From Rouxiella sp. Mn2063 (GTDB lineage Bacteria > Pseudomonadota > Gammaproteobacteria > Enterobacterales > Enterobacteriaceae): 24,000 nucleotides of DNA. The notes below the pieces were generated by a model. The model worked only from the letters and a program-made list of their open reading frames with translations. It was not told the DNA's origin and made no database searches. The translations under genes and the position numbers were made by a program. Shown here one piece after another: positions 2,434 to 23,724 of this stretch. How positions within the stretch are numbered: position 1 is the first letter of the stretch; each line of letters begins with the position of its first letter. Where the stretch lies: assembly GCF_049319665.1 (NCBI RefSeq), contig NZ_JBMOUD010000021.1, forward strand, positions 22,176 through 46,175, in the 5' to 3' direction.

Positions 2434-5400
2434 TTAGAAACTGTAACGATAACCGGCGTTAAATTGCCGCTGGTCGAATTTGCCACCGCTGGTGCTATCT
2501 AAATCGACATATAAACTGTGCTGTTTTTTAATTTCGGTGCTAATACCGATAGCGTTATTCCAACCGCCGCCCTTGTTTGAATACTGCTCACTCGAGCCGT
2601 TGAGCCGATAATCTATTTTCCCAGAGAACTCTCGAATATAGCCACTCTTCAGATAAATATTGGTCGGCATGCTGCCGTCACTAATATTGTAACCGGCCAC
2701 TAGACTGGCGCGTCCGAGCGTAGAGTTGTAAGAATCAATATTGATTTTTAGGTTATTCGAGGCGTGAATAGACTCGCTACTTTGATAGCTTAGGCTCAGC
2801 TGTGCCTGGGGTTCCAGGTAGAATCCTGTTGGTTTCTCATTGAAATAAAAACGCTTTCCAGACTCGACGGAGGCGGCAAATCCGTTGACCGAGTCTTTTC
2901 CTCTGACCAATTGATCGGCAGTGTCGAGTACGCTGAATCTATTTCTCATGTTGGAGTATTTTAAGACGGTATCGACATAAAAACCCGTTGGTGTGAGGTA
3001 AGTACTGTATAGGCCAACGCTGGTGCTCTTGAGTGAGCCATCGCCATCTTGATAGGCTTGACTGGAGTTTCCCAATCCCATAAATGTACCTAAGTACATT
3101 ACGCCATCCTGAAGAGTGAGTTTTTTATCCGCACCGAATTGGAAGCCATGATAGTTCATGGTAAAGCCGCTAAGCTTGCCATTGGAGAAATTGTCAAAGC
3201 GACCGACGAAGCCTCTTCCCCAAAGTCCGATGGATTTATCATTGCCTCGTAATTCCCCCATACGTTGCATCAATGTCTGCGTTTCGGCGTAATTCATCAG
3301 ATAAGTGGTATTGGCAAAGCTGGCCGCGGCTTTTGCCGTTGAGGTGAGCGCACCATGTCCGGCAGGCGGCTTTGATGGGGTAGAGGGCTGCTCTGGTGTG
3401 CCCGGTTCAACGGGGTCTTCTGTGGTGGGTTTCTCCCCTAGCGAATAAAGCTCCCAATTATTGGGATTAGCTGCCTGACGTAAACCATAAAGGTAGCCAC
3501 CTTGTTCAACCTCATGAGACAGCGCAAAGCTACCGCCAGATTCCGCTGTTTTAACCATCGTGAGTTGTTCACTACCGTTAGTCTGTTGCCCTCCATCATT
3601 TTTAATATCCAGACGGAATTGTCCATCAGTACTGTGTTGTGTGACTAATAGATCACCCTGCTGCTCTGCCATGGCGGCTCGCATGGCAAATTCGCCATTG
3701 CCTTGCAGGCTATTTTTAACCGTTAGCGTGTTATAGCCACTGTTGTTTTGCGACATATCGAGAATGCCATTCATGTTCAGCGTATTGGTATCGCTATCGC
3801 TGGTTAATACCCATTGGCTATCTGGGCTAATCTCGATATCGTTGGTATTGTGCGCACCGCCACTCCAGATAGATTTATTGCTTAAGGACAGATTTATTTG
3901 GTTATTATCGGTAGCAGTAATATCACCTTCCAGCGTTGATTGGTCAGCGGCGGTAATGTTGACGAGGCTATCGCTATTTGAGGCGCTGTCGACGGTTGCT
4001 AATACATTATTGCCGCCGCGAAGCGTTGAGCCATTTTTAAGATTCACATTCAACTTAGCGCCGGCAGCGTTAATGCCAGGGCCTGATGTCGGTAGCAAAG
4101 TACTATTATCGAGTGTGATAGTGGTCTCTTTTGTGGCGGTACCTTGAGCATATATGCCGCCGCCACCTTCACCTGTCATGCTCAGAGTACTATTGAGAAT
4201 ATTGGTCGTACTGCCGCCAAGCGCGTAAACACCGTAGGCATTTTTCCCTGACGATTCTGCACTAATGCCGTCAGCATTAATGGTCGAACTGCCAAAGTTG
4301 AGCAGCATATGCCCAAGGTTGCCGGTTGTTTTAATCGTCGAATTCTTAACGTTAATTATCCCGCCTCTGGCGGCGGTAATTGCGGCGCTGCTGCTACCGT
4401 TGGTTTCCACATTTGTATCATTGGCATTGAGGGCACCTTCAGAATAAAGTGCATAGGCATTATTGCCTTTAGTCAAAATCGAGCTGCCCTTTATATTCGT
4501 GGTTCCGTGGTTTTCTATGGCCGCTGACGCATTTCCCTCGGTGGTGATGGAGGTATTATTAGCCTCTAATGTCGCGGTATTATCAGCAATATATGCTCCG
4601 GTATCGTTGTCTCCTTTGAGAAGATAAGAGCCGCCATTGAGCGTAATTTTTGAGTAGTTATTAGCATCAATCATGGCGCCAGCGCGTGATTGCGAGGTTG
4701 CGTTAACGTTATTCAAGACCAGGTTCGCGTATTTGTCAGTACTGCCCATCGCAATAGCCACGGAACCTTGGGTCAGGTTGATGCTGCCATTATCTATCAA
4801 CGCGGAATCGGCGATATTTAAGGCATGGGTCGTAGAGCCATTAACGGTCAGATTTTTCATGGTGAGCGAGGTATTTGCATTGCTGCGAATAGCGGATAAA
4901 CCACCATTCATATTAATGGTCGTATCCTGTAAATCGGCGCTGCTCCCTGAGTTCAAATCGATGCCATCACTATAGGCATCCAGGCTAATATGGTTGTTTG
5001 CACCATTTAACGTTGTCCCCTGATCTTTTAGGTTAATACCGGGTAAACCGCCTCCCGCAATCGATATATTACTGTTGTTTAGCGTAACCTGAGAGCCGCC
5101 GCTAGCATCGATAGCAGACGAGCTATATTGCTTAGTACTTATCGTGGTTCCATTAATATCAAGGTGAGAGTGATTATTGATGCGAACCGCTGTACTGGAA
5201 CTTCCTGATGTCGCAATACTGCCACCAGTAATTTTCGCCGAGCCGTTGCTGAGCACGACGCCATTAGCTGCGCCACCCGAAGTATTGATGCTCGAGTCTG
5301 TCAGGTTAAGATTCCCGCCGTTATAAATATAGGCGCTGTAAGCCGCGCTACCACCGGTGGTAACTGATACTTCTCCATTACTTGTCAACGTGCTATTCGT

Positions 5401-5598
5401 GCCGCTGGCTGTCAGTGCGTGAGTCGCTTTTTTCGACGTACTATATTTGCCAGAAATCGGTAGGTTTGTGCCATCAGTCACCGAAGCCGTGATGTCGTTG
5501 GCGTGAGCATAAATTGGGGTTAATATTGAAAATAGGATATTAGCTAATATTTTTATTTTAAACTTTGAATGTTTAAATGTTGTATTGTTCATTAACAT
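2434..5598 (-). CDS. Type Va autotransporter, adhesin-like (AIDA-I/pertactin-type passenger plus C-terminal beta-barrel)
   Basis: 1054-aa ORF. Signal peptide (KILANILFSILTPIYAHA/ND). About 650 aa of G/N/S/T-rich ~20-residue beta-helix rungs. Autochaperone-like segment (LVTQHSTDGQFRLDIKNDGG...GGYLYGLRQ...WELYS). Pro-rich linker (PTTEDPVEPGTPEQPSTPSKPP). Barrel ends in NAGYRYSF with a terminal aromatic residue. No GDSGS (SPATE) or GDSL motif seen. Confidence 0.9.
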   Translation of the reverse strand: MLMNNTTFKHSKFKIKILANILFSILTPIYAHANDITASVTDGTNLPISGKYSTSKKATHALTASGTNSTLTSNGEVSVTTGGSAAYSAYIYNGGNLNLTDSSINTSGGAANGVVLSNGSAKITGGSIATSGSSSTAVRINNHSHLDINGTTISTKQYSSSAIDASGGSQVTLNNSNISIAGGGLPGINLKDQGTTLNGANNHISLDAYSDGIDLNSGSSADLQDTTINMNGGLSAIRSNANTSLTMKNLTVNGSTTHALNIADSALIDNGSINLTQGSVAIAMGSTDKYANLVLNNVNATSQSRAGAMIDANNYSKITLNGGSYLLKGDNDTGAYIADNTATLEANNTSITTEGNASAAIENHGTTNIKGSSILTKGNNAYALYSEGALNANDTNVETNGSSSAAITAARGGIINVKNSTIKTTGNLGHMLLNFGSSTINADGISAESSGKNAYGVYALGGSTTNILNSTLSMTGEGGGGIYAQGTATKETTITLDNSTLLPTSGPGINAAGAKLNVNLKNGSTLRGGNNVLATVDSASNSDSLVNITAADQSTLEGDITATDNNQINLSLSNKSIWSGGAHNTNDIEISPDSQWVLTSDSDTNTLNMNGILDMSQNNSGYNTLTVKNSLQGNGEFAMRAAMAEQQGDLLVTQHSTDGQFRLDIKNDGGQQTNGSEQLTMVKTAESGGSFALSHEVEQGGYLYGLRQAANPNNWELYSLGEKPTTEDPVEPGTPEQPSTPSKPPAGHGALTSTAKAAASFANTTYLMNYAETQTLMQRMGELRGNDKSIGLWGRGFVGRFDNFSNGKLSGFTMNYHGFQFGADKKLTLQDGVMYLGTFMGLGNSSQAYQDGDGSLKSTSVGLYSTYLTPTGFYVDTVLKYSNMRNRFSVLDTADQLVRGKDSVNGFAASVESGKRFYFNEKPTGFYLEPQAQLSLSYQSSESIHASNNLKINIDSYNSTLGRASLVAGYNISDGSMPTNIYLKSGYIREFSGKIDYRLNGSSEQYSNKGGGWNNAIGISTEIKKQHSLYVDLDSTSGGKFDQRQFNAGYRYSF

Positions 5599-15154: not shown

Positions 15155-17149
15155 ATGTCCTCTCGTAAAGAGCTTGCGAACGCTATTCGCGCACTTAGTA
15201 TGGATGCCGTGCAGAAAGCAAAATCTGGCCACCCTGGTGCCCCAATGGGCATGGCGGACATCGCCGAAGTGTTATGGCGCGACTACCTGAACCATAACCC
15301 GACCAACCCACACTGGGCAGACCGCGACCGCTTCGTGCTGTCTAACGGCCACGGTTCTATGCTGATTTACAGCCTGCTGCACCTCACTGGTTACGCGCTG
15401 CCAATCAAAGAACTGGAAAACTTCCGTCAACTGCATTCTAAAACTCCAGGTCACCCAGAATACGGCTACACCCCAGGTGTTGAAACCACCACGGGCCCAT
15501 TGGGTCAGGGTATTGCTAACGCCGTAGGTTTTGCTATCGCAGAACGTACGCTGGCTGCACAGTTCAATAAACCAGGCCACGACATCGTTGACCACCACAC
15601 CTACGCGTTCCTGGGTGACGGTTGTATGATGGAAGGTATCTCTCACGAAGCCTGTTCACTGGCTGGCACCATGAAACTCGGCAAACTGACCGCGTTTTAT
15701 GATGACAACGGTATCTCTATCGACGGCCACGTAGAAGGCTGGTTCACCGACGATACGGCTGCTCGTTTTGAAGCCTACGGCTGGCACGTTGTGCGCGGTG
15801 TTGATGGTCACAATGCTGATTCCATCAAAGCGGCTATCGAAGACGCCCGTAAAGTAACCGACAAACCTTCCCTGTTGATGTGCAAAACCATCATCGGTTT
15901 CGGTTCGCCAAACAAAGCCGGTACTCACGATTGCCACGGCGCACCGTTGGGTGATGCTGAGATCGCCGCAACTCGCGAAGCGCTGGGCTGGAAATACGCG
16001 CCGTTTGAAATCCCACAGGATATCTACGCACAGTGGGATGCGAAAGAAGCAGGCAAAGCGAAAGAAGCGGCATGGGATGAGAAATTTGCCGCCTATGCAA
16101 AAGCCTTCCCTGAGCTGGCTGCTGAGTTCAAACGCCGTGTGAACGGTGAACTGCCTGCCACCTGGAAAGCTGACGCCAAGAAATTCGTTGAGCACCTGCA
16201 GGCTAACCCGGCGAACATCGCCAGCCGTAAAGCGTCACAAAACGCGCTGGAAGCCTTCGGTAAAGTGTTGCCTGAATTCCTCGGCGGCTCTGCTGACCTG
16301 GCACCAAGCAACCTGACCATGTGGTCTGGCTCTAAAGCGTTGAACGACGACGCTGCGGGTAACTACATCCATTACGGCGTGCGTGAATTCGGCATGACCG
16401 CCATCACCAACGGTATCGCGCTGCACGGCGGTTTCCTGCCGTACTCTGCCACCTTCCTGATGTTTGTAGAATACGCGCGTAACGCGGTACGTATGGCGGC
16501 GCTGATGAAACTGCGCAACGTGTTCGTTTACACCCACGACTCTATTGGTCTGGGCGAAGACGGCCCGACGCACCAGCCGGTTGAGCAAATCGCCAGCCTG
16601 CGCGTCACGCCAAACATGAGCACCTGGCGTCCTGCTGACCAGGTAGAATCAGCGATTGCCTGGCAGTACGGTATCGAGCGCAACGACGGCCCGACCACGC
16701 TGATTTTCTCTCGTCAGAACCTGACCCAGCAGCCACGTACCGCTGAGCAACTGGCGAACGTGTACCGCGGTGGTTATATTCTGAAAGATTCAGAAGGCAC
16801 CCCGGACGTTATCCTGATTGCGACCGGTTCAGAAGTGGGTATCACTGTTGAAGCCGCTGACAAACTGGCCGCTGCGGGCACCAAAGTGCGCGTGGTGTCT
16901 ATGCCGTCTACCGACGCTTTCGACAAACAAGACGCCGCTTACCGCGAGTCTGTGCTGCCAGCAGCCGTGACTGCTCGCGTGGCGATTGAAGCGGGTATCG
17001 CTGATGCATGGTACAAATACGTTGGCCTGAATGGTGCCATCATTGGGATGACCACCTTCGGTGAGTCGGCGCCTGCGGAGCTGCTGTTCGAAGAGTTCGG
17101 TTTCACCGTAGAGAATATTGTTGCTAAGGCGCAAGGCTTACTGAAATAA
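15155..17149 (+). CDS. tktA: Transketolase
   Basis: 664 aa. The N-terminus is almost identical to E. coli TktA as recalled ([41 protein letters not shown]). ThDP motif [12 protein letters not shown] Shine-Dalgarno at 15143-15146. Confidence 0.98.
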
Positions 17150-17174
17150 GTTTCGCGTTTCACGCACGTTAAAA

Positions 17175-17211
17175 ATGCCTGGTCAGAGAATGCTGACCGG
17201 GCATTTTTTTT
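17175..17211 (+). terminator. tktA intrinsic terminator
   Basis: ATGCCTGGTCAG (17175-17186), loop AGAATG, CTGACCGGGCAT (17193-17204): a 12-bp stem with one G:U pair. T8 (17204-17211) follows. A second small hairpin, AACGCTT/AAGCGTT, lies at 17212-17230. Confidence 0.85.
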
Positions 17212-17240
17212 AACGCTTTTGCGAAGCGTTGATATCGCTA

Positions 17241-17300
17241 TTTAAAACCGGAACGGTGTAATGTTCGGTTGAGGAAGCAATGACCGTTGCTTTAGCGGTT
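17241..17300. repeat. 60-bp repeat unit, left full copy (L1)
   Basis: Its reverse complement matches 17883-17942 at 56 of 60 positions (hand count). The next unit starts exactly 60 nt later (TTTAAAA at 17241 and at 17301). Confidence 0.9.
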
Positions 17301-17587
17301 TTTAAAATCAGAACAGTGTAATTTTCGGTTCTTCAAATGTAGTGTTCAATGTAGCTTCATAGACCGAACCGCCGAAAGGAGGCTGGCCGCCCCCTTTGCG
17401 AATCCCGGGCCTTTTCAAACTTTTATATCGAGTCCAGCGGAGGCCATGTTTCAGGGGGCTTCCGTTATAGCGCAAATGCCAGCCCTCCGGGCTTCCCGCC
17501 TGCGGGTTCAAGCCAACGATAATTCCATTGTCTTTCACCACTCCGACGGTGGCATTTTGAGTGCGCTTAGCGGCTTTTAAGGTCAAA
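17301..17587 (-). repeat. Left arm of the large imperfect palindrome (candidate structured RNA read on the minus strand)
   Basis: It begins with a half repeat unit (17301-17330). Its reverse complement aligns with 17601-17882 through a chain of mirror-image anchors. It contains hairpins at 17375-17397 and 17481-17493. Confidence 0.75.
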
Positions 17588-17600
17588 GGCAGAAGCAGTT

Positions 17601-17882
17601 TTTGACGTTAAAAAAGCCTGGTGGCGCACTCAAAATTTCACTGACGAGTGGTGGAGAGACGGCAAAGCTGGCTCGAACCCGAAGGAAGGCATGGCGGAGC
17701 CATGAAATTTGCGCCTGTCGCTGTGGCACCTGAAACATAGCCTAATTGGAATGAGATATAACACCATGAAAAGGCGCAGGATTGTAAAGGAACGCGCCTT
17801 CGTTCCTTTACTCGGTTTAGGCTGCACGGCAGCATTGAACGCCGTACTTCGGAAACCGAAAAATCACCGTACTGGTTTTAAA
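17601..17882 (+). repeat. Right arm of the large imperfect palindrome (candidate structured RNA read on the plus strand)
   Basis: It is a diverged inverted copy of the left arm. It contains hairpins at 17690-17704 and 17784-17811 and ends with a half repeat unit (17853-17882). Confidence 0.75.
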
Positions 17883-17942
17883 AACCGCCAAAGCAACGGT
17901 CATTGCTTCCTCAACCGAACATTACACCGTTCTAGTTTTACA
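17883..17942. repeat. 60-bp repeat unit, right full copy (R2)
   Basis: 56/60 identical to the reverse complement of 17241-17300. Confidence 0.9.
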
Positions 17943-17943
17943 A

Positions 17944-18001
17944 AACCGCTAAAGCACGGTTATTGCTTCCCCACTGAAATACTCACCGCTCTGGTTTTAA
18001 A
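17944..18001. repeat. 60-bp repeat unit, diverged third copy (R3), tandem to R2
   Basis: It has the same ends as R2 (AACCGCTAAAGCA...GGTTTTAAA) and roughly three quarters identity by eye. It has no mirror partner on the left side. Confidence 0.75.
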
Positions 18002-18080
18002 AACAGTTTTCCCTGGTTTTCCAAAACCAGCTCCCCTGATAAAGGCTTATCACTTTTGGTGATAGATTTTATCGCTAAAA

Positions 18081-18150
18081 CCACTTAGTCATTTTGGTTA
18101 TTTAATATTTCCATCACTTATTTAATTGTTATCATTTGGCTGGTTAACCT
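18081..18150 (+). promoter_or_regulatory. AT-rich cysJ upstream region, candidate CysB-dependent promoter
   Basis: It lies 65-135 nt upstream of the cysJ ATG. The motif CCAYTTAGTCATTT plus TTTGGTTATT recurs in the iap/next-gene intergenic region (23923-23973). cysJIH is CysB-activated in E. coli and Salmonella. Exact boxes were not resolved. Confidence 0.35.
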
Positions 18151-18215
18151 TACAAACTCTCCGCCTCTTTTTCCGGGCTGACACTGGCTTAAGCAACAAG
18201 GGAATTCGTACCGCG

Positions 18216-20024
18216 ATGACGATTCAGGCACCACCTACATCTCTACTCCCGCTTACTCCGGAGCAATTAGCCCGGTTGCAGGCGACAATTGGTGAATATT
18301 CACCAACCCAATTAGCTTGGCTTTCCGGTTATTTTTGGGGAATGGTTAATCAACAGCCTGGCGCAGTCGCCGTTCCCGTAGCGGCTCCGGCCCCGGTTGC
18401 GGCCTCTATTACGCTAATTTCTGCTTCGCAGACCGGAAATGCACGTCGCGTGGCGGAGCTATTACGTGATGATTTAATTGAAGCCAAACTTAACGTCACT
18501 TTGGTGAACGCTGGTGATTACAAATTTAAGCAGATAGCTCAAGAGAAACTGCTGATTGTCGTGGCGTCAACGCAAGGGGAAGGCGAACCGGCAGAAGAAG
18601 CCGTCGCGCTGCATAAATTCCTACAATCGAAGAAAGCGCCACAGTTGAAAGATACCGCCTTTGCGGTGTTTGCGCTGGGCGATACGTCTTATGACTATTT
18701 CTGCCAGTCCGGCAAAGATTTTGATACCCGTTTGGGTGAGCTGGGCGCAGAGCGTTTGCTGGATCGCGTCGATGCCGATGTTGATTACCAAGAGCTGGCG
18801 CAAGAGTGGCGTAATAAACTGGTTGAGACGCTGAAAAAACGCGTGCCTACTGATGCACCAGCGACCATTGCCGCAACGCAGGCGGGCAGTGTTGATCAGC
18901 TTGATAGCTCGCCTTACAGCAAAGAGCAGCCACTGACGGCGTTGTTGTCGGTGAATCAGAAAATTACTGGGCGTAACTCAGACAAAGACGTGCGCCATAT
19001 CGAAATCGATCTGGGTGATTCTGGCTTACGTTACCAGCCAGGCGATGCGCTGGGTATTTGGTATGAAAACGATCCGGCATTAGTCAAAGAATTAGTCGAA
19101 CTGCTGTGGCTGAAAGGCGATGAGCAGGTCGAATTGCAGGGTAAAAAATACTCGTTGAATGAGGCGTTACAGCATCATATCGAGCTGACGCAAAATACCA
19201 CGGTTATTGTTAACCAGTACGCCGCGCTATCGCGTGACGACGAACTTCTGACTCTGGTCGAAGATAAAAGCGCGTTGCAGCACTATGCGCATAATACGCC
19301 GCTGGTAGATATGGTGCGTCAGGCTCCGGTTGAGCTGGAAGCGCAACAACTTGTCGACCTGCTGCGTTCTTTGACGCCGCGCCTTTATTCGATTGCCTCT
19401 TCACAGGCTGAGAATGAAAACGAAGTGCACATTACCGTCGGCGTCGTGCGTTATGACATTGATGGACGCGCGCGTACCGGTGGTGCATCGGGTTATCTGG
19501 CCGATCGCTTAGAAACTGATGGTGAAGTACGAGTGTTCATTGAACACAATGACAACTTCCGCCTGCCGACTAATCCCGATGCGCCGGTGATTATGATTGG
19601 GCCGGGCACCGGTATTGCGCCGTTCCGTGCCTTTATCCAGCAGCGCGATAACGATGGCGCTAGCGGCAAAAACTGGCTGTTCTTTGGCAATCCACACTTT
19701 ACCGATGATTTCCTCTATCAGGTTGAGTGGCAGCGTTATGTCAAAGATGGCTTACTGACCCATATCGATTTAGCCTGGTCACGCGATCAGGCACAGAAAG
19801 TCTACGTACAGGACAAACTGCGAGAGAAGGGCGCTGAAGTATGGCGCTGGCTGCAAGAAGGCGCGCACGTTTATGTCTGTGGTGATGCTAATCGCATGGC
19901 GAAAGACGTTGAACAGGCTTTACTGGATATTATTGCCGAACATGGCGCGATGGATTTAGAAGCCGCCGACGAATTCCTCAGTGAACTGCGTCTCGATCGC
20001 CGCTATCAGCGGGATGTGTATTAA
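18216..20024 (+). CDS. cysJ: Sulfite reductase [NADPH] flavoprotein alpha component
   Basis: The track ORF starts at 18126, but alignment with E. coli CysJ ([18 protein letters not shown]) sets the start at ATG 18216 (602 aa). Motifs: [34 protein letters not shown]-terminal RYQRDVY. Confidence 0.97.
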
Positions 20025-21771: not shown

Positions 21772-22506
21772 ATGAGTGTTCTCTCTCTAGCAGAATTGAA
21801 TGCGTTACCTAAGTCCGCTCAGGCACTGGCCTTGGCGGAAGTAAACGGACAGCTGGAAAAGCTTTCTGCGCAAGAGCGCGTAAGCTGGGCGCTGGAAAAT
21901 CTGCCGGGCGAGTTCACTTTATCGTCCAGTTTTGGTATTCAGGCGGCGGTTTGCCTGCATTTGGTGACGCGCCAGAAAGCCGATATCCCGGTGATCCTTA
22001 CCGACACCGGTTATCTGTTCCCGGAAACTTACCAGTTTATCGATGCGCTGACCGAACAGCTCAACCTGAACTTGCAGGTTTTCCAAGCGGCCCAATCGCC
22101 AGCCTGGCAGGAAGCGCGCTACGGAAAACTGTGGGAGCAGGGCGTGGAAGGTATCGAGCGCTATAACCAGATCAACAAGGTTGAACCGATGAACAGGGCA
22201 TTGGAAACGCTGGGTGCACAAACCTGGTTCGCGGGTTTACGCCGCGAGCAGTCTGGTAGCCGGGCCAATCTACCCGTTTTGGCCGTGCAGCGCGGCGTGT
22301 TTAAGATCCTGCCGATCATTGACTGGGATAACCGTCAGATCTTCCAATACTTGAAAGAGCACGGTTTAAGCTACCACCCGCTATGGGATCAAGGTTACTT
22401 GTCGGTAGGTGATACGCACACAACGCGTAAATGGGAAGAAGGGATGAGCGAAGAAGAAACGCGCTTCTTCGGCCTTAAACGCGAATGTGGTCTGCACGAA
22501 GGTTAA
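21772..22506 (+). CDS. cysH: Phosphoadenosine phosphosulfate (PAPS) reductase
   Basis: 244 aa collinear with E. coli CysH ([42 protein letters not shown]-terminal KRECGLHEG). Confidence 0.98.
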
Positions 22507-22529
22507 TGAGGAAAGATTGATAAACTCAA

Positions 22530-22560
22530 ACGGGCGCAGATAAAAATGCGCCCGTTTTTT
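22530..22560 (+). terminator. cysJIH operon intrinsic terminator
   Basis: ACGGGCGCA (22530-22538), loop GATAAAAA, TGCGCCCGT (22547-22555), followed by a T-run to 22560. Confidence 0.88.
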
Positions 22561-22680
22561 ATGGAAGTGTTTGGTTTTTGACCTTGCGGGGCAGGTCCGG
22601 TTAATGAGGGACCGAACCTGCGCAACGTTGATAGAGTTTGCCTCATCCCCACGAAGCGATGACTCGCAGTCATCACCCTG

Positions 22681-23724
22681 TTAACTGCGCTGTACGCTGC
22701 TCGGATTGGCTAGCTCTTGCAGCAATGGCAGCAAGATTTTCACACTGTCGCTTGAACGCTTGGCAATGCGCCCGGGCAAGTAACGGTCAAGATACTGCAA
22801 ATTATCCAGTTGCCCCTGTTTACGGCTGGTGCCTTCAGGGAAATGTGTACTGATGGCGCGCTGCTGCTTGCCGTCTTTATTGCCTTGCGTCCAATCACTG
22901 GCAGATACCAGCAGCAGGGGAATATTGGCATCATCGAGCGGCTGTAAGTCTCCATCGCTATTGGCTGTCGCAGGACTGCTTGCGGCTGGAATCTCTAATC
23001 GCTGAGCCAGTGCCAGCGCGCGGTTGCGCGAGAGCTTGGTCACTTCAGCCGAGGTATGTGCACCGCTATTGAAATAGAGTCGTTCACCAACAATCAATGA
23101 GTTGAGATTGACCACTAAAAGCGTATTTTTTCGCTCTTCCGGCGTCATGTTATCGACAAAATCTTTGGCGCCTTGCGACCCGGTTTGCTCGGCACTAAGT
23201 GCAACGAAACGTAGGCTGTAATGCGTCGGCACATTACTCATACGCTGCGCCAGTTCAAGCATGACACCTACGCCAGAGGCGTTGTCGTCAACGCCTTGTA
23301 ATGTTAATCCGCCAAGATTATGGTTGGCGTCATTATCACTGAGCGGCATATAGGTATCAAAATGGGCCATGACCACAATTTGTTGAGGAACTTCGCCTGC
23401 ATGCAGTGCGTTCACTGAGGTAGCATTAATGTTCTGCCAAGACTGTTTGCCATTCTCACTGGTGTAAATGTAGCGCGTCTTAAAGCTGTGCAGACTGCTC
23501 TGATAACCCATTTGGCTGAAATGTTGAGTCAGATAATCAGCAGCGATAAGTTCGGCAGGACTGCCCGCCATGCGACCCGGGAAATAAGTGGCAATGTGGC
23601 GTGTTTGCCAGGCGGCAATTTTGCCTAAATGTGCATCAAGTTTTGGTTCAGCTGCTTGTGCGGCACATAGGCCTAAACATGTCAGGCTGATTAGGGCTGT
23701 CCTTATGTGTCGGAGGGAAAACAT
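22681..23724 (-). CDS. iap: M28-family aminopeptidase (alkaline phosphatase isozyme conversion protein)
   Basis: 347 aa with a signal peptide. Collinear with E. coli Iap as recalled (RHIAT.FPGRM.G.PAE, MAHFDTY.PLSD, GLTLQG.DDNA.G.GVMLELA, NTLLV.NL..LIVG..LYFNSG). It is convergent with cysH, as in E. coli. Confidence 0.9.
   Translation of the reverse strand: MFSLRHIRTALISLTCLGLCAAQAAEPKLDAHLGKIAAWQTRHIATYFPGRMAGSPAELIAADYLTQHFSQMGYQSSLHSFKTRYIYTSENGKQSWQNINATSVNALHAGEVPQQIVVMAHFDTYMPLSDNDANHNLGGLTLQGVDDNASGVGVMLELAQRMSNVPTHYSLRFVALSAEQTGSQGAKDFVDNMTPEERKNTLLVVNLNSLIVGERLYFNSGAHTSAEVTKLSRNRALALAQRLEIPAASSPATANSDGDLQPLDDANIPLLLVSASDWTQGNKDGKQQRAISTHFPEGTSRKQGQLDNLQYLDRYLPGRIAKRSSDSVKILLPLLQELANPSSVQRS

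Follow-up and report, generated by a model that had tools for sequence, protein, structure and literature searches.

The 24,000-nucleotide stretch of Rouxiella sp. Mn2063 DNA analyzed here (the window) carries tktA and cysJ, and the spacer between them holds one copy of an undescribed, non-coding, multicopy repeat composed of two mirror-image modules of ∼290 bases. All ORFs of 150 aa or more in the window are housekeeping genes, and no transposase, integrase, Rep, HUH, RAYT, TnpA, TnpB, or intI gene and no integron cassettes lie within it. The repeat is the only large one in the window, and its parts and flanks are as follows.

17171-17215 (+): tktA intrinsic terminator (hairpin plus T-run), just outside the element and bidirectional in form; inverted repeat 17171-17186/17193-17208, 94% complementary, followed by T8
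17233-17331 (-): left outer modules, two 60-nt units, each with an 'a' half carrying the palindrome CTGGTTTT-A-AAAACCG and a 'b' half carrying the hairpin AAGCAA-CGGTCA-TTGCTT; they mirror the right outer units
17319-17476 (-): left arm (A type), outer domain, with helix P6, hairpin H2 (17375-17397), and helix P8 (17326-17331 with 17366-17371), which encloses the invariant CAUUGAAC
17469-17567 (-): left arm (A type), inner domain I, with helix P1 (17562-17567 with 17469-17474), helix P2 (17551-17556 with 17475-17480), hairpin P4, and hairpin H1 (17481-17493, GGA triloop)
17568-17622 (no strand): center of symmetry (∼17592-17595) and variable spacer, with the conserved TTTGACCTTAAAAGCC/TTTTGACGTTAAAAAAGCC motifs, weak candidates for divergent promoters (TTGAGT-N17-TAACGT on the minus strand; TTGAGT-N15-TAAGGT on the plus strand)
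17623-17716 (+): right arm (B type), inner domain I, with helix P1 (17623-17628 with 17710-17715), helix P2 (17634-17639 with 17704-17709), hairpin P4, and hairpin H1 (17690-17704, GGA triloop)
17709-17865 (+): right arm (B type), outer domain, with helix P6, hairpin H2 (17784-17811), and helix P8 (17813-17818 with 17853-17858)
17854-18030 (+): right outer modules, 2.5 to 3 copies of the 60-nt unit (17854-18004), then the terminal palindrome CTGGTTTTCCAAAACCAG (18013-18030)
18046-18215 (+): cysJ promoter region, outside the element, with a promoter-like site TTTCCA-16-TATCAT at 18108-18135

The initial annotation described a large imperfect palindrome with diverged arms and compensated hairpins between 17301 and 17882, and this observation is confirmed. 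Every anchor and hairpin coordinate it gave is correct, including TTTGACC/TTTGACG, GCGCACTCAAAAT, H1, and H2, and its estimate of 60 to 65% identity between the arms agrees with the 59 to 60% measured for the inner domains. The palindrome is, however, larger than was described: the reverse complement of 17243-17587 aligns with 17601-17940 (blastn, 70.6% identity over 717 columns, E 2.4e-71), and the local alignment score of 193 compares with 19.4 ± 2.3 (maximum 32) for 200 shuffles. The outer 89 nt of each arm (17243-17331/17852-17940) are 87% complementary and consist of 60-nt tandem units, which reach beyond the coordinates first given, with two on the left (17233-17330) and 2.5 to 3 on the right (17854-18004). 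Those on the right were also recovered by Tandem Repeats Finder (period 60, 2.5 copies, 80% matches). Unit motifs occur only in this spacer within the window, and a motif search gave 8 matches against 0.2 expected.

Relatives were found only in metagenome contigs of the same Rouxiella-like clade, and show that this is one copy of a dispersed, mosaic repeat family, which the initial annotation could not see. The element recurs at the same locus in contigs L001, L003, and L005, at a second chromosomal locus beside can and an ABC transporter in the same assembly (L023), and as exact 662-nt and 624/544-nt tandem or circular assemblies, whose outer ends abut with a 3-nt spacer. The element from L005 is a mosaic with swapped modules, and deletion variants occur. 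The window copy sits at a synteny breakpoint: Rahnella and Ewingella have the conserved cysJ promoter without any of the element, and homology to them resumes at 18046, with the L019-L021 upstream regions matching 18046-18154 at 82 to 86%. A tblastn search for a remnant of the 353-aa gene that precedes cysJ in Rahnella and Ewingella found nothing. A covariance model of inner domain I (R1) scores 111.6 bits on the left arm and 99.2 bits on the right arm, but finds no extra copies in the window or in the Rahnella and Ewingella loci.

Each of the five elements pairs one A-type arm with one B-type arm, and these are old paralogues that are 48 to 72% identical. The A arms are 76 to 97% alike across elements, whereas the B arms fall into two subtypes, and at the same locus the A arm stayed 97% identical while the B arm changed to 60%. 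The arms thus do not coevolve, which rules out one giant foldback in favor of local folds. Center length varies from about 57 to 80 nt among the five elements, and the outer ends differ between copies.

Structure within each arm is conserved, and there are more compensatory helices than the initial annotation saw, including a long-range helix (P1/P2) that closes a ∼95-nt domain. Across 10 arms the inner domain is 94.8% paired, compared with 24 to 40% when partners are slid, 13 of 25 pairs changed on both sides, and 0 of 500 shuffles reach the covariation score. We note, however, that only about three deeply diverged subtypes exist and the covariance model gives an effective sequence number of 1.39, such that the covariation rests on few independent lineages. 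H1 has five different stems with the same GGA loop, H2 has six different stems of 9 to 12 bp that are all paired, and P8 is 100% paired with one covarying pair. The unpaired motifs CUCAA, GGCUYGAACCCG, UGAAACAU, and CAUUGAAC are invariant between paralogues that are otherwise ∼55% identical. Inner helices P3, P5, P7, and P9 are inconsistent among arms and are not claimed.

Among distinct helix variants in the curated helices, G·U outnumbers A·C by 12 to 2 on the outward-reading strands (binomial P = 0.013), supporting the proposal in the initial annotation that the functional strand is minus for the left arm and plus for the right arm, such that each arm acts as a single strand read away from the center. 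The strand assignment rests on these counts only. Outward minimum free energies were lower in 9 of 10 arms, but the advantage disappears after composition control, and single-sequence folding energies are unremarkable and equal on both strands (z-scores of -2.3 and -0.7 outward, and -2.4 and -0.7 inward).

An intact reading frame with third-position-biased substitutions in homologues had been specified in advance as evidence against structural conservation, and neither property was found. The 92-codon ORF (17308-17586, minus strand) is open in the left arm and matches seven database proteins (P0121 to P0127), but it starts with TTG, those proteins differ by frameshifts and truncations, a 1-nt indel breaks it in L001, and substitutions fall 11/14/15 by codon position. 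An MFQ ORF stops after 5 to 7 codons in most arms, a search with the 117-aa right-arm frame returned only the L005 ORF, a Pfam search of all spacer ORFs gave no hits, and exact look-ups of TktA and of the 92-aa ORF returned no record. A pair of small protein genes or pseudogenes, with a decayed mirror copy on the right, is thus the least likely of the readings we considered, the changes in stems being compensatory. No ORF is conserved among the arms, and a type I toxin-antitoxin locus of the hok/sok kind, with a conserved small hydrophobic ORF within a highly folded mRNA, is not supported.

A clear hit to a described repeat or RNA family was likewise set out beforehand as grounds for rejection, and none was obtained. 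There are no hits to Rfam 15, its riboswitch and ribozyme families included, at gathering score in the window, and at E ≤ 10 the hits to the window and to L024 and L025 are only generic terminator models (NsiR1 and Thr_leader at the tktA terminator) or long-hairpin miRNA-precursor models. The IS605-orfB and HEARO models do not match, no hit to a CsrB, CsrC, or Rsm model appeared even at E ≤ 10, and only about three GGA motifs are conserved per arm, one of them in the H1 triloop, in contrast to the roughly 7 to 22, mostly in hairpin loops, of CsrA/RsmA-sequestering RNAs. ARAGORN found no tRNA or tmRNA in the window, and the GGCUCGAACCC stretch only resembles a T-arm. A blastn search (word size 11) of 17150-18216 against 5,426 E. 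coli genomes gave no match, excluding ERIC/IRU and other E. coli-type repeats, and across blastn searches of plasmids, phages, and E. coli genomes only the cysJ promoter matched. Two pattern scans of genome contigs gave nothing and three chance hits in unrelated phyla, respectively, a metagenome scan gave 10 chance hits with no further similarity, and two scans of viral contigs gave nothing and one chance hit inside a methyltransferase gene. A literature search for the sample accessions found nothing. Hammerhead CUGANGA, sigma-54, sigma-E, FliA, dif/Xer, Cra box, and lipoprotein signal motifs were considered by eye and rejected as not conserved or not matching.

The initial annotation offered either paired non-coding RNAs or a single-stranded DNA (ssDNA) element recognized by an HUH enzyme or integrase, and its interpretation is partly supported, in that structure rather than protein is conserved, the strands are as proposed, and no known family is matched, but the evidence does not discriminate between the two alternatives. 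We regard as demonstrated that 17233-18030 is one copy of a lineage-restricted family in Rouxiella-like Yersiniaceae, that each copy is a palindrome of two back-to-back paralogous arms, that each arm specifies a conserved single-stranded fold of about 250 to 290 nt on the outward strand (an inner domain closed by P1/P2 with P4 and H1, then the hypervariable but always paired H2 and P8 closing around CAUUGAAC), and that outside the arms lie 60-nt units with a palindromic, protein-site-like motif and a small hairpin. It is an inference, and one that we favor only tentatively, that the two arms are transcribed divergently from the variable center into two paralogous structured RNAs, and that the element spreads and reshuffles by recombination between copies, which would also explain its position at a synteny breakpoint. 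Multihelix junctions, long-range closure, and conserved unpaired motifs are typical of RNAs, whereas known ssDNA recombination substrates are simple hairpins, and a TTGAGT-N17-TAACGT/TAAATT site, a candidate promoter, sits at the same position in all five centers. However, no sigma-70 promoter passed the scan in any copy, the candidate for the B arm has a 15-nt spacer, no intrinsic terminator follows the arms on the outward strand, and no expression data were available; multicopy, mosaic, tandem, or circular behavior is also unusual for ordinary sRNA genes.

The main alternative, possible but less likely, is a non-autonomous mobile or recombination element acting as folded ssDNA and mobilized by an enzyme encoded elsewhere (HUH/RAYT-like, Rep, or recombinase), each arm being a structured recognition or origin module. 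In this view the inverted pairing would guarantee that whichever strand is exposed (lagging-strand template, transfer, or rolling-circle intermediate) carries one module in the active sense. The dispersed copies, module exchange, cyclic or tandem assemblies, synteny breakpoint, and lack of a promoter or terminator are consistent with this, the invariant c-GGA-g loop equals the very stable d(cGNAg) DNA triloop, and the repeated palindromic 'a' sites (2 on the left and 3 to 4 on the right) recall multisite transposon ends. The strand asymmetry is equally expected for ssDNA, as G·T is the most tolerated DNA mismatch. However, there is no candidate enzyme in the 24 kb, no target-site duplication or defined termini are seen at the boundaries, the element is absent from the plasmids, phages, and viral contigs searched, and REP, attC, and IS200/IS605 ends are single short hairpins rather than 95-nt multihelix junctions with long-range closure.

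A selfish or neutral palindromic satellite, whose hairpins are kept perfect by template switching within quasi-palindromes and gene conversion between copies and not by selection, is unlikely. The perfectly paired H1 and H2 stems despite rapid divergence, the homogenization of the outer parts of the arms to 87 to 92%, the module swapping and deletion variants, and the ordinary folding z-scores are as this would predict, but it does not explain compensation in helices whose strands lie ∼80 to 90 nt apart (P1/P2 and P4a), the 12:2 excess of G·U over A·C on one strand, or the invariant unpaired motifs. A cis-regulatory role for cysJIH or the 3' end of tktA (a leader, attenuator, or operator array) is very unlikely and largely refuted by the second locus: although the element lies directly upstream of the cysJ promoter and the 'a' units and terminal CTGGTTTTCCAAAACCAG look like dimeric operator sites, it also sits next to the unrelated gene can and in arrays with no genes, Rahnella and Ewingella lack it, and one arm points away from cysJ.

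REPINs and BIMEs, REP doublets mobilized by RAYT transposases (PMC3116915), are likewise extragenic and multicopy, with two related units inverted around a spacer, compensatory changes, higher-order clusters, and a proposed function as folded ssDNA or mRNA. However, REPINs are about 70 to 110 nt and their two REPs pair with each other into one hairpin, whereas here each ∼290-nt arm folds on itself and inter-arm identity, equal to foldback pairing, is only 48 to 72%; a cognate RAYT gene was sought in the window only. Paralogous enterobacterial sRNA pairs and RNA-encoding repeats (OmrA/OmrB, GlmY/GlmZ, QUAD/Sib, and LDR) are also duplicated intergenic non-coding modules with structure conserved more than sequence, but they have clear promoters and intrinsic terminators, are 80 to 200 nt long, are usually in tandem or at separate loci, and are not found as mosaic, tandem, or circular arrays, and Sib and Ldr come with toxin ORFs that are absent here. 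IS200/IS605 ends, PATEs, and their omega/re-RNAs share strand-specific folded ends, non-autonomous derivatives, and structured RNAs read outward through an element end, but their two end hairpins lie on the same strand, whereas the modules here are in inverted orientation, and the scaffold adjoins tnpB. Integron attC sites are single imperfect hairpins of 57 to 141 nt (R''-L''/L'-R') next to gene cassettes and an integrase, unlike the multihelix arms described here.

Structured single-strand origins and ssDNA promoters (the filamentous-phage intergenic region, plasmid sso, and F-plasmid Frpo) also have several hundred nucleotides of strand-specific, multihairpin ssDNA structure whose fold is conserved while sequence varies, and stable GNA triloops occur in phage origins, but they sit on phages or plasmids next to replication genes, whereas this element is chromosomal and paired in inverted orientation. 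Foldback transposons and long-TIR MITEs are similarly non-coding and multicopy, almost entirely inverted repeat, with outer tandem subrepeats. Here, no direct repeat flanks 17241/18001 and no fixed termini were seen, but no empty site was available for comparison, leaving membership in this class undecided; we note that the arms are old, in our reading selectively maintained, paralogues with internal covariation, not homogenized TIRs.

It is possible, although less likely than not, that the arms define a new class of ∼290-nt structured nucleic acid carried in obligatory A/B inverted pairs by a self-propagating 0.55- to 0.8-kb element that can exist as tandem arrays or small circles as well as chromosomal inserts. 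This could be either a giant REPIN-like replicator whose mobility depends on complex folded single strands or a non-coding RNA-producing selfish element with no encoded protein, and in either case would be a previously unrecognized kind of bacterial non-coding replicator. Covariation this clear in an element matching no described RNA family or repeat is uncommon in Enterobacterales, the best-studied bacterial order. If the arms are RNAs, this is a new structured RNA class with an unusual paired, multicopy genomic form; if they act as ssDNA, it extends hairpin-dependent mobile DNA (REP/RAYT, IS200/IS605, and attC) to large multihelix folds. In either case it marks a synteny breakpoint and may drive rearrangements. 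Its inverted repeats also break short-read assemblies, and the related metagenome contigs are short and several start or end inside the element, so that it is easily missed.

The tktA stop is at 17149 and cysJ starts at the ATG at 18216, and all of the mirror anchors and hairpins listed in the initial annotation of this spacer are found at the coordinates it gave; the observation of a large imperfect palindrome thus holds. The mirror symmetry is far beyond chance, as a local alignment of the reverse-complemented left half against the right half scores 193, whereas shuffled sequences score 19.4 +/- 2.3 with a maximum of 32, and blastn aligns 17243-17940 against itself in reverse at 70.6% over 717 columns (E 2.4e-71). 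The feature is larger than first described. The outer 89 nt of each arm (17243-17331 and 17852-17940) are 87% complementary and consist of 60-nt tandem units, two on the left and 2.5-3 on the right, and the last unit is followed by a perfect 8-2-8 palindrome, CTGGTTTTCCAAAACCAG, at 18013-18030. Nothing else in the 24-kb window is repeated on this scale, and the unit motifs occur only in this spacer. We note that the center-right sequence ACGTTAAAAAAGCCTGGT (17605-17622) matches the start of the tktA terminator (17166-17183) at 17 of 18 positions (E 0.07), which could be chance or a trace of how the junction formed.

A clear match to a described RNA or repeat family, or an intact reading frame in relatives with substitutions biased to the third position, had been named in advance as grounds for rejecting a new structured element, and neither was seen. 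No Rfam family reaches threshold, with only terminator-like and generic long-hairpin models appearing at E<=10, and there is no tRNA or tmRNA. The spacer open reading frames (ORFs) have no Pfam match, the 92-codon ORF of the left arm is broken by a 1-nt deletion in the closest relative, and its seven database "homologs" differ by frameshifts and truncations. A second shared ORF that starts MFQ stops after 5-7 codons in most arms, and substitutions among A arms (one of the two arm types described below) fall 11/14/15 on codon positions 1/2/3; protein coding is thus refuted. The region has no similarity in 5,426 Escherichia coli genomes, PLSDB plasmids, or phage genomes, apart from the cysJ promoter. 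The window codes for speA, an autotransporter, speB, the yhfZ-yhfX-php-yhfT cluster, loiP, tktA, cysJIH, and iap, and no transposase, integrase, or Rep gene is present.

The CysJ protein of the window is 100% identical to WP_422794579.1 of Rouxiella sp. Mn2063, and the next cultured relatives (Ewingella, Rahnella, and other Rouxiella) are only 81-84% identical. In the Rahnella and Ewingella loci compared (L019 to L022), cysJ is preceded by queE, queD, and a 353-aa gene rather than by tktA, and homology to the window begins only at 18046. The element therefore occupies a synteny breakpoint and is lineage specific, filling the junction (17150-18045) exactly. Pattern scans of the species-representative genome collection, a metagenome collection, and viral contigs returned only chance hits, and relatives were instead recovered by two routes, through contigs coding for near-identical CysJ and through spurious ORFs called on the element. 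The contigs are as follows.

L001 and L003: the same locus, with CysJ 96% identical; L001 carries both arms, and L003 starts inside the right arm.
L002 (1-71): codes for the same CysJ protein as L001, but differs upstream of the first outer unit, with an extra unit carrying a variant hairpin, AAGCT-CGGTCA-AGCTT, plus the GCCGTTGATTCGAACGGC hairpin; it is either a population variant or an assembly path through the repeats.
L005 and L004: the same locus in a third lineage; L005 starts inside the right arm, and L004 overlaps only the region next to cysJ (from window position 18005).
L023: from the same assembly as L001 but next to a carbonic anhydrase gene and an ABC transporter, and thus a second chromosomal locus; its center contains a (GCCTGT)x3 microsatellite (229-262).
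L024 (1-951): 951 nt, with an exact 289-nt terminal direct repeat at period 662, built from one inner center and one outer junction at which the two outer ends of the element abut as a 63-nt inverted repeat with a 3-nt spacer (146-148).
L025 (1-1174): 1174 nt, with exact repeats at periods 624 and 544, so that one copy lacks 80 nt of the A arm; the B arm is rearranged, with its outer half inverted relative to its inner half, which shows that the domains are separable modules.

The element is therefore a dispersed family that also occurs as tandem arrays or small circles, two forms that short-read assemblies do not distinguish. Center length and sequence vary from about 57 to 80 nt among the five elements.

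Fourteen arm segments were extracted and oriented outward from their centers, although L003 duplicates L001 and several are partial. For domain I, the ten complete arms fall into an A type (76-97% alike) and a B type with two subtypes, and A against B is only 48-72%; every complete element has one A arm and one B arm. Each arm contains the following parts, read outward.

Domain I: helix P1 (RGCGCR/UGCGCY), a CUCAA bulge, and helix P2 together close about 95 nt, within which lie a variable hairpin P4 on a 3-bp base and hairpin H1, with five different stems but a constant GGA triloop (GGAU in one arm).
Conserved unpaired stretch: carries the motifs UGAAACAU, CUGGA, AAAAGGC, and GGAUU and holds a short helix, P6.
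Hairpin H2: six different stems of 9-12 bp, all fully paired, with a purine-rich 5' strand.
Helix P8: CGGUUY/RAACCG, enclosing the invariant CAUUGAAC.
Outer units: an "a" half containing CTGGTTTT-A-AAAACCG and a "b" half that is the hairpin AAGCAA-CGGTCA-TTGCTT; in other copies there is also a terminal hairpin, GCCGTT-GATTCG-AACGGC.

A statistical test of covariation among aligned homologs had been proposed, and on the ten-arm alignment of domain I, 94.8% of cells form standard pairs, dropping to 24-40% when the 3' partners are slid by 1-3 columns. Thirteen of 25 pairs have changes on both sides, against 0-3 when slid; no shuffle in 500 reaches the covariation score, and one in 500 reaches the count of doubly changed pairs. 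We note, however, that only about three deeply diverged subtypes exist (the covariance model gives an effective sequence number of 1.39), that the structure was derived from these same sequences, and that single-sequence stability is ordinary, with z between -0.7 and -2.4 on either strand. Other inner helices (P3, P5, P7, and P9) are not consistent among arms and are not claimed. P8 is 100% paired with one covarying position, P6 is 92.5% paired with little variation, and H2 variants fold into perfect hairpins one by one.

Domain I at first seemed more stable on the outward strand in 9 of 10 arms, but this advantage is compositional, as shuffled sequences show it too, and we discard that test. 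The valid test is wobble asymmetry, since G·U and A·C should be equally common under strand-symmetric mutation. Among distinct helix variants there are 12 G·U and 2 A·C on the outward strand (P = 0.013), so each arm functions as a single strand read away from the center, minus for the left arm and plus for the right arm, as the initial annotation suggested. We note, however, that on the inward-reading strand of every A arm (window 17535-17561, plus strand, and homologous sites in L001, L023, L024, and L025) a weak terminator-like hairpin followed by CATTTTGAGT is predicted, which conflicts in direction with the outward-strand model and is unexplained. A whole-element foldback is excluded for the inner domains, because at the tktA-cysJ locus the A arm stayed 97% identical between the window and L001, while the B arm changed to 60% identity with no matching change in A. 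The arms are also exchanged as modules. The right arm of L005 (1-180) has A-type flanks with a B-type H2, indicating module exchange or a flip of the core between the outer inverted repeats, and the A arm of L024 carries B-like P2 and P4a.

The analysis thus establishes a non-coding, dispersed, recombining palindromic element whose two arms each keep a complex, strand-specific, single-stranded fold, whereas how the element works is inferred. We tentatively favor divergent transcription of two paralogous structured RNAs, because a multihelix junction with long-range closure, G·U tolerance, and conserved unpaired motifs is what structured RNAs look like, and a promoter-like site, TTGAGT-N17-TAACGT/TAAATT, is at the same place in all five centers, embedded in the B arm and pointing into the A arm. 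However, no site passed the promoter scan, the mirror candidate has a 15-nt spacer, and there is no outward terminator. The main alternative, possible but less likely, is an ssDNA-active mobile or replicative element, in which the inverted pairing would make function independent of which strand is exposed. The tandem or circular forms, the breakpoint location, the lack of expression signals, and the c-GGA-g triloop, which matches the very stable d(cGNAg) DNA motif, all fit this view, whereas the lack of an enzyme gene in the 24-kb window, the lack of target duplications on inspection of the boundaries without an empty site for comparison, and the unprecedented structural complexity count against it. 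A purely mutational origin of the perfect hairpins, through quasi-palindrome correction and gene conversion, is possible for H1 and H2 but does not explain the long-range covariation, the wobble asymmetry, or the invariant loops, and we consider it improbable overall. A cysJ-specific regulatory role is contradicted by the second locus and by relatives that lack the element. The interpretation in the initial annotation is thus partly supported: conservation of structure rather than protein, the outward strands, and the lack of any known family all hold, but the evidence does not decide between its RNA and ssDNA alternatives.

The closest systems in concept are REPINs, which are inverted doublets, extragenic and multicopy, with compensatory changes, and proposed to act as ssDNA or mRNA (PMC3116915). 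The element lacks their defining feature, in which the two short REPs pair with each other, and is several times larger. It likewise does not qualify as IS200/IS605 ends, an attC site, a CsrB-type RNA, a type I toxin locus, ERIC, or a member of any Rfam family. It resembles foldback transposons in outline and structured ssDNA origins in complexity but shares neither their context nor their sequence, although fixed termini and a target-site duplication of the foldback kind were looked for without an empty site for comparison. We place it among interspersed structured palindromic repeats, differing from REPINs in arm pairing and size; that it represents a new class of non-coding replicator or RNA is possible but unlikely.

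Ahead of cysJ, a promoter-like site, TTTCCA-16-TATCAT with an upstream TG (18108-18135), is conserved in L001 (TATGAT), lies inside the block shared with Rahnella and Ewingella, and is probably the cysJIH promoter. Elsewhere in the window, the autotransporter gene (2434-5598) codes for a 1054-aa product and sits between speA and speB, and cysH is followed directly by iap (21772-23724) with no CRISPR-cas locus between them, unlike E. coli K-12.
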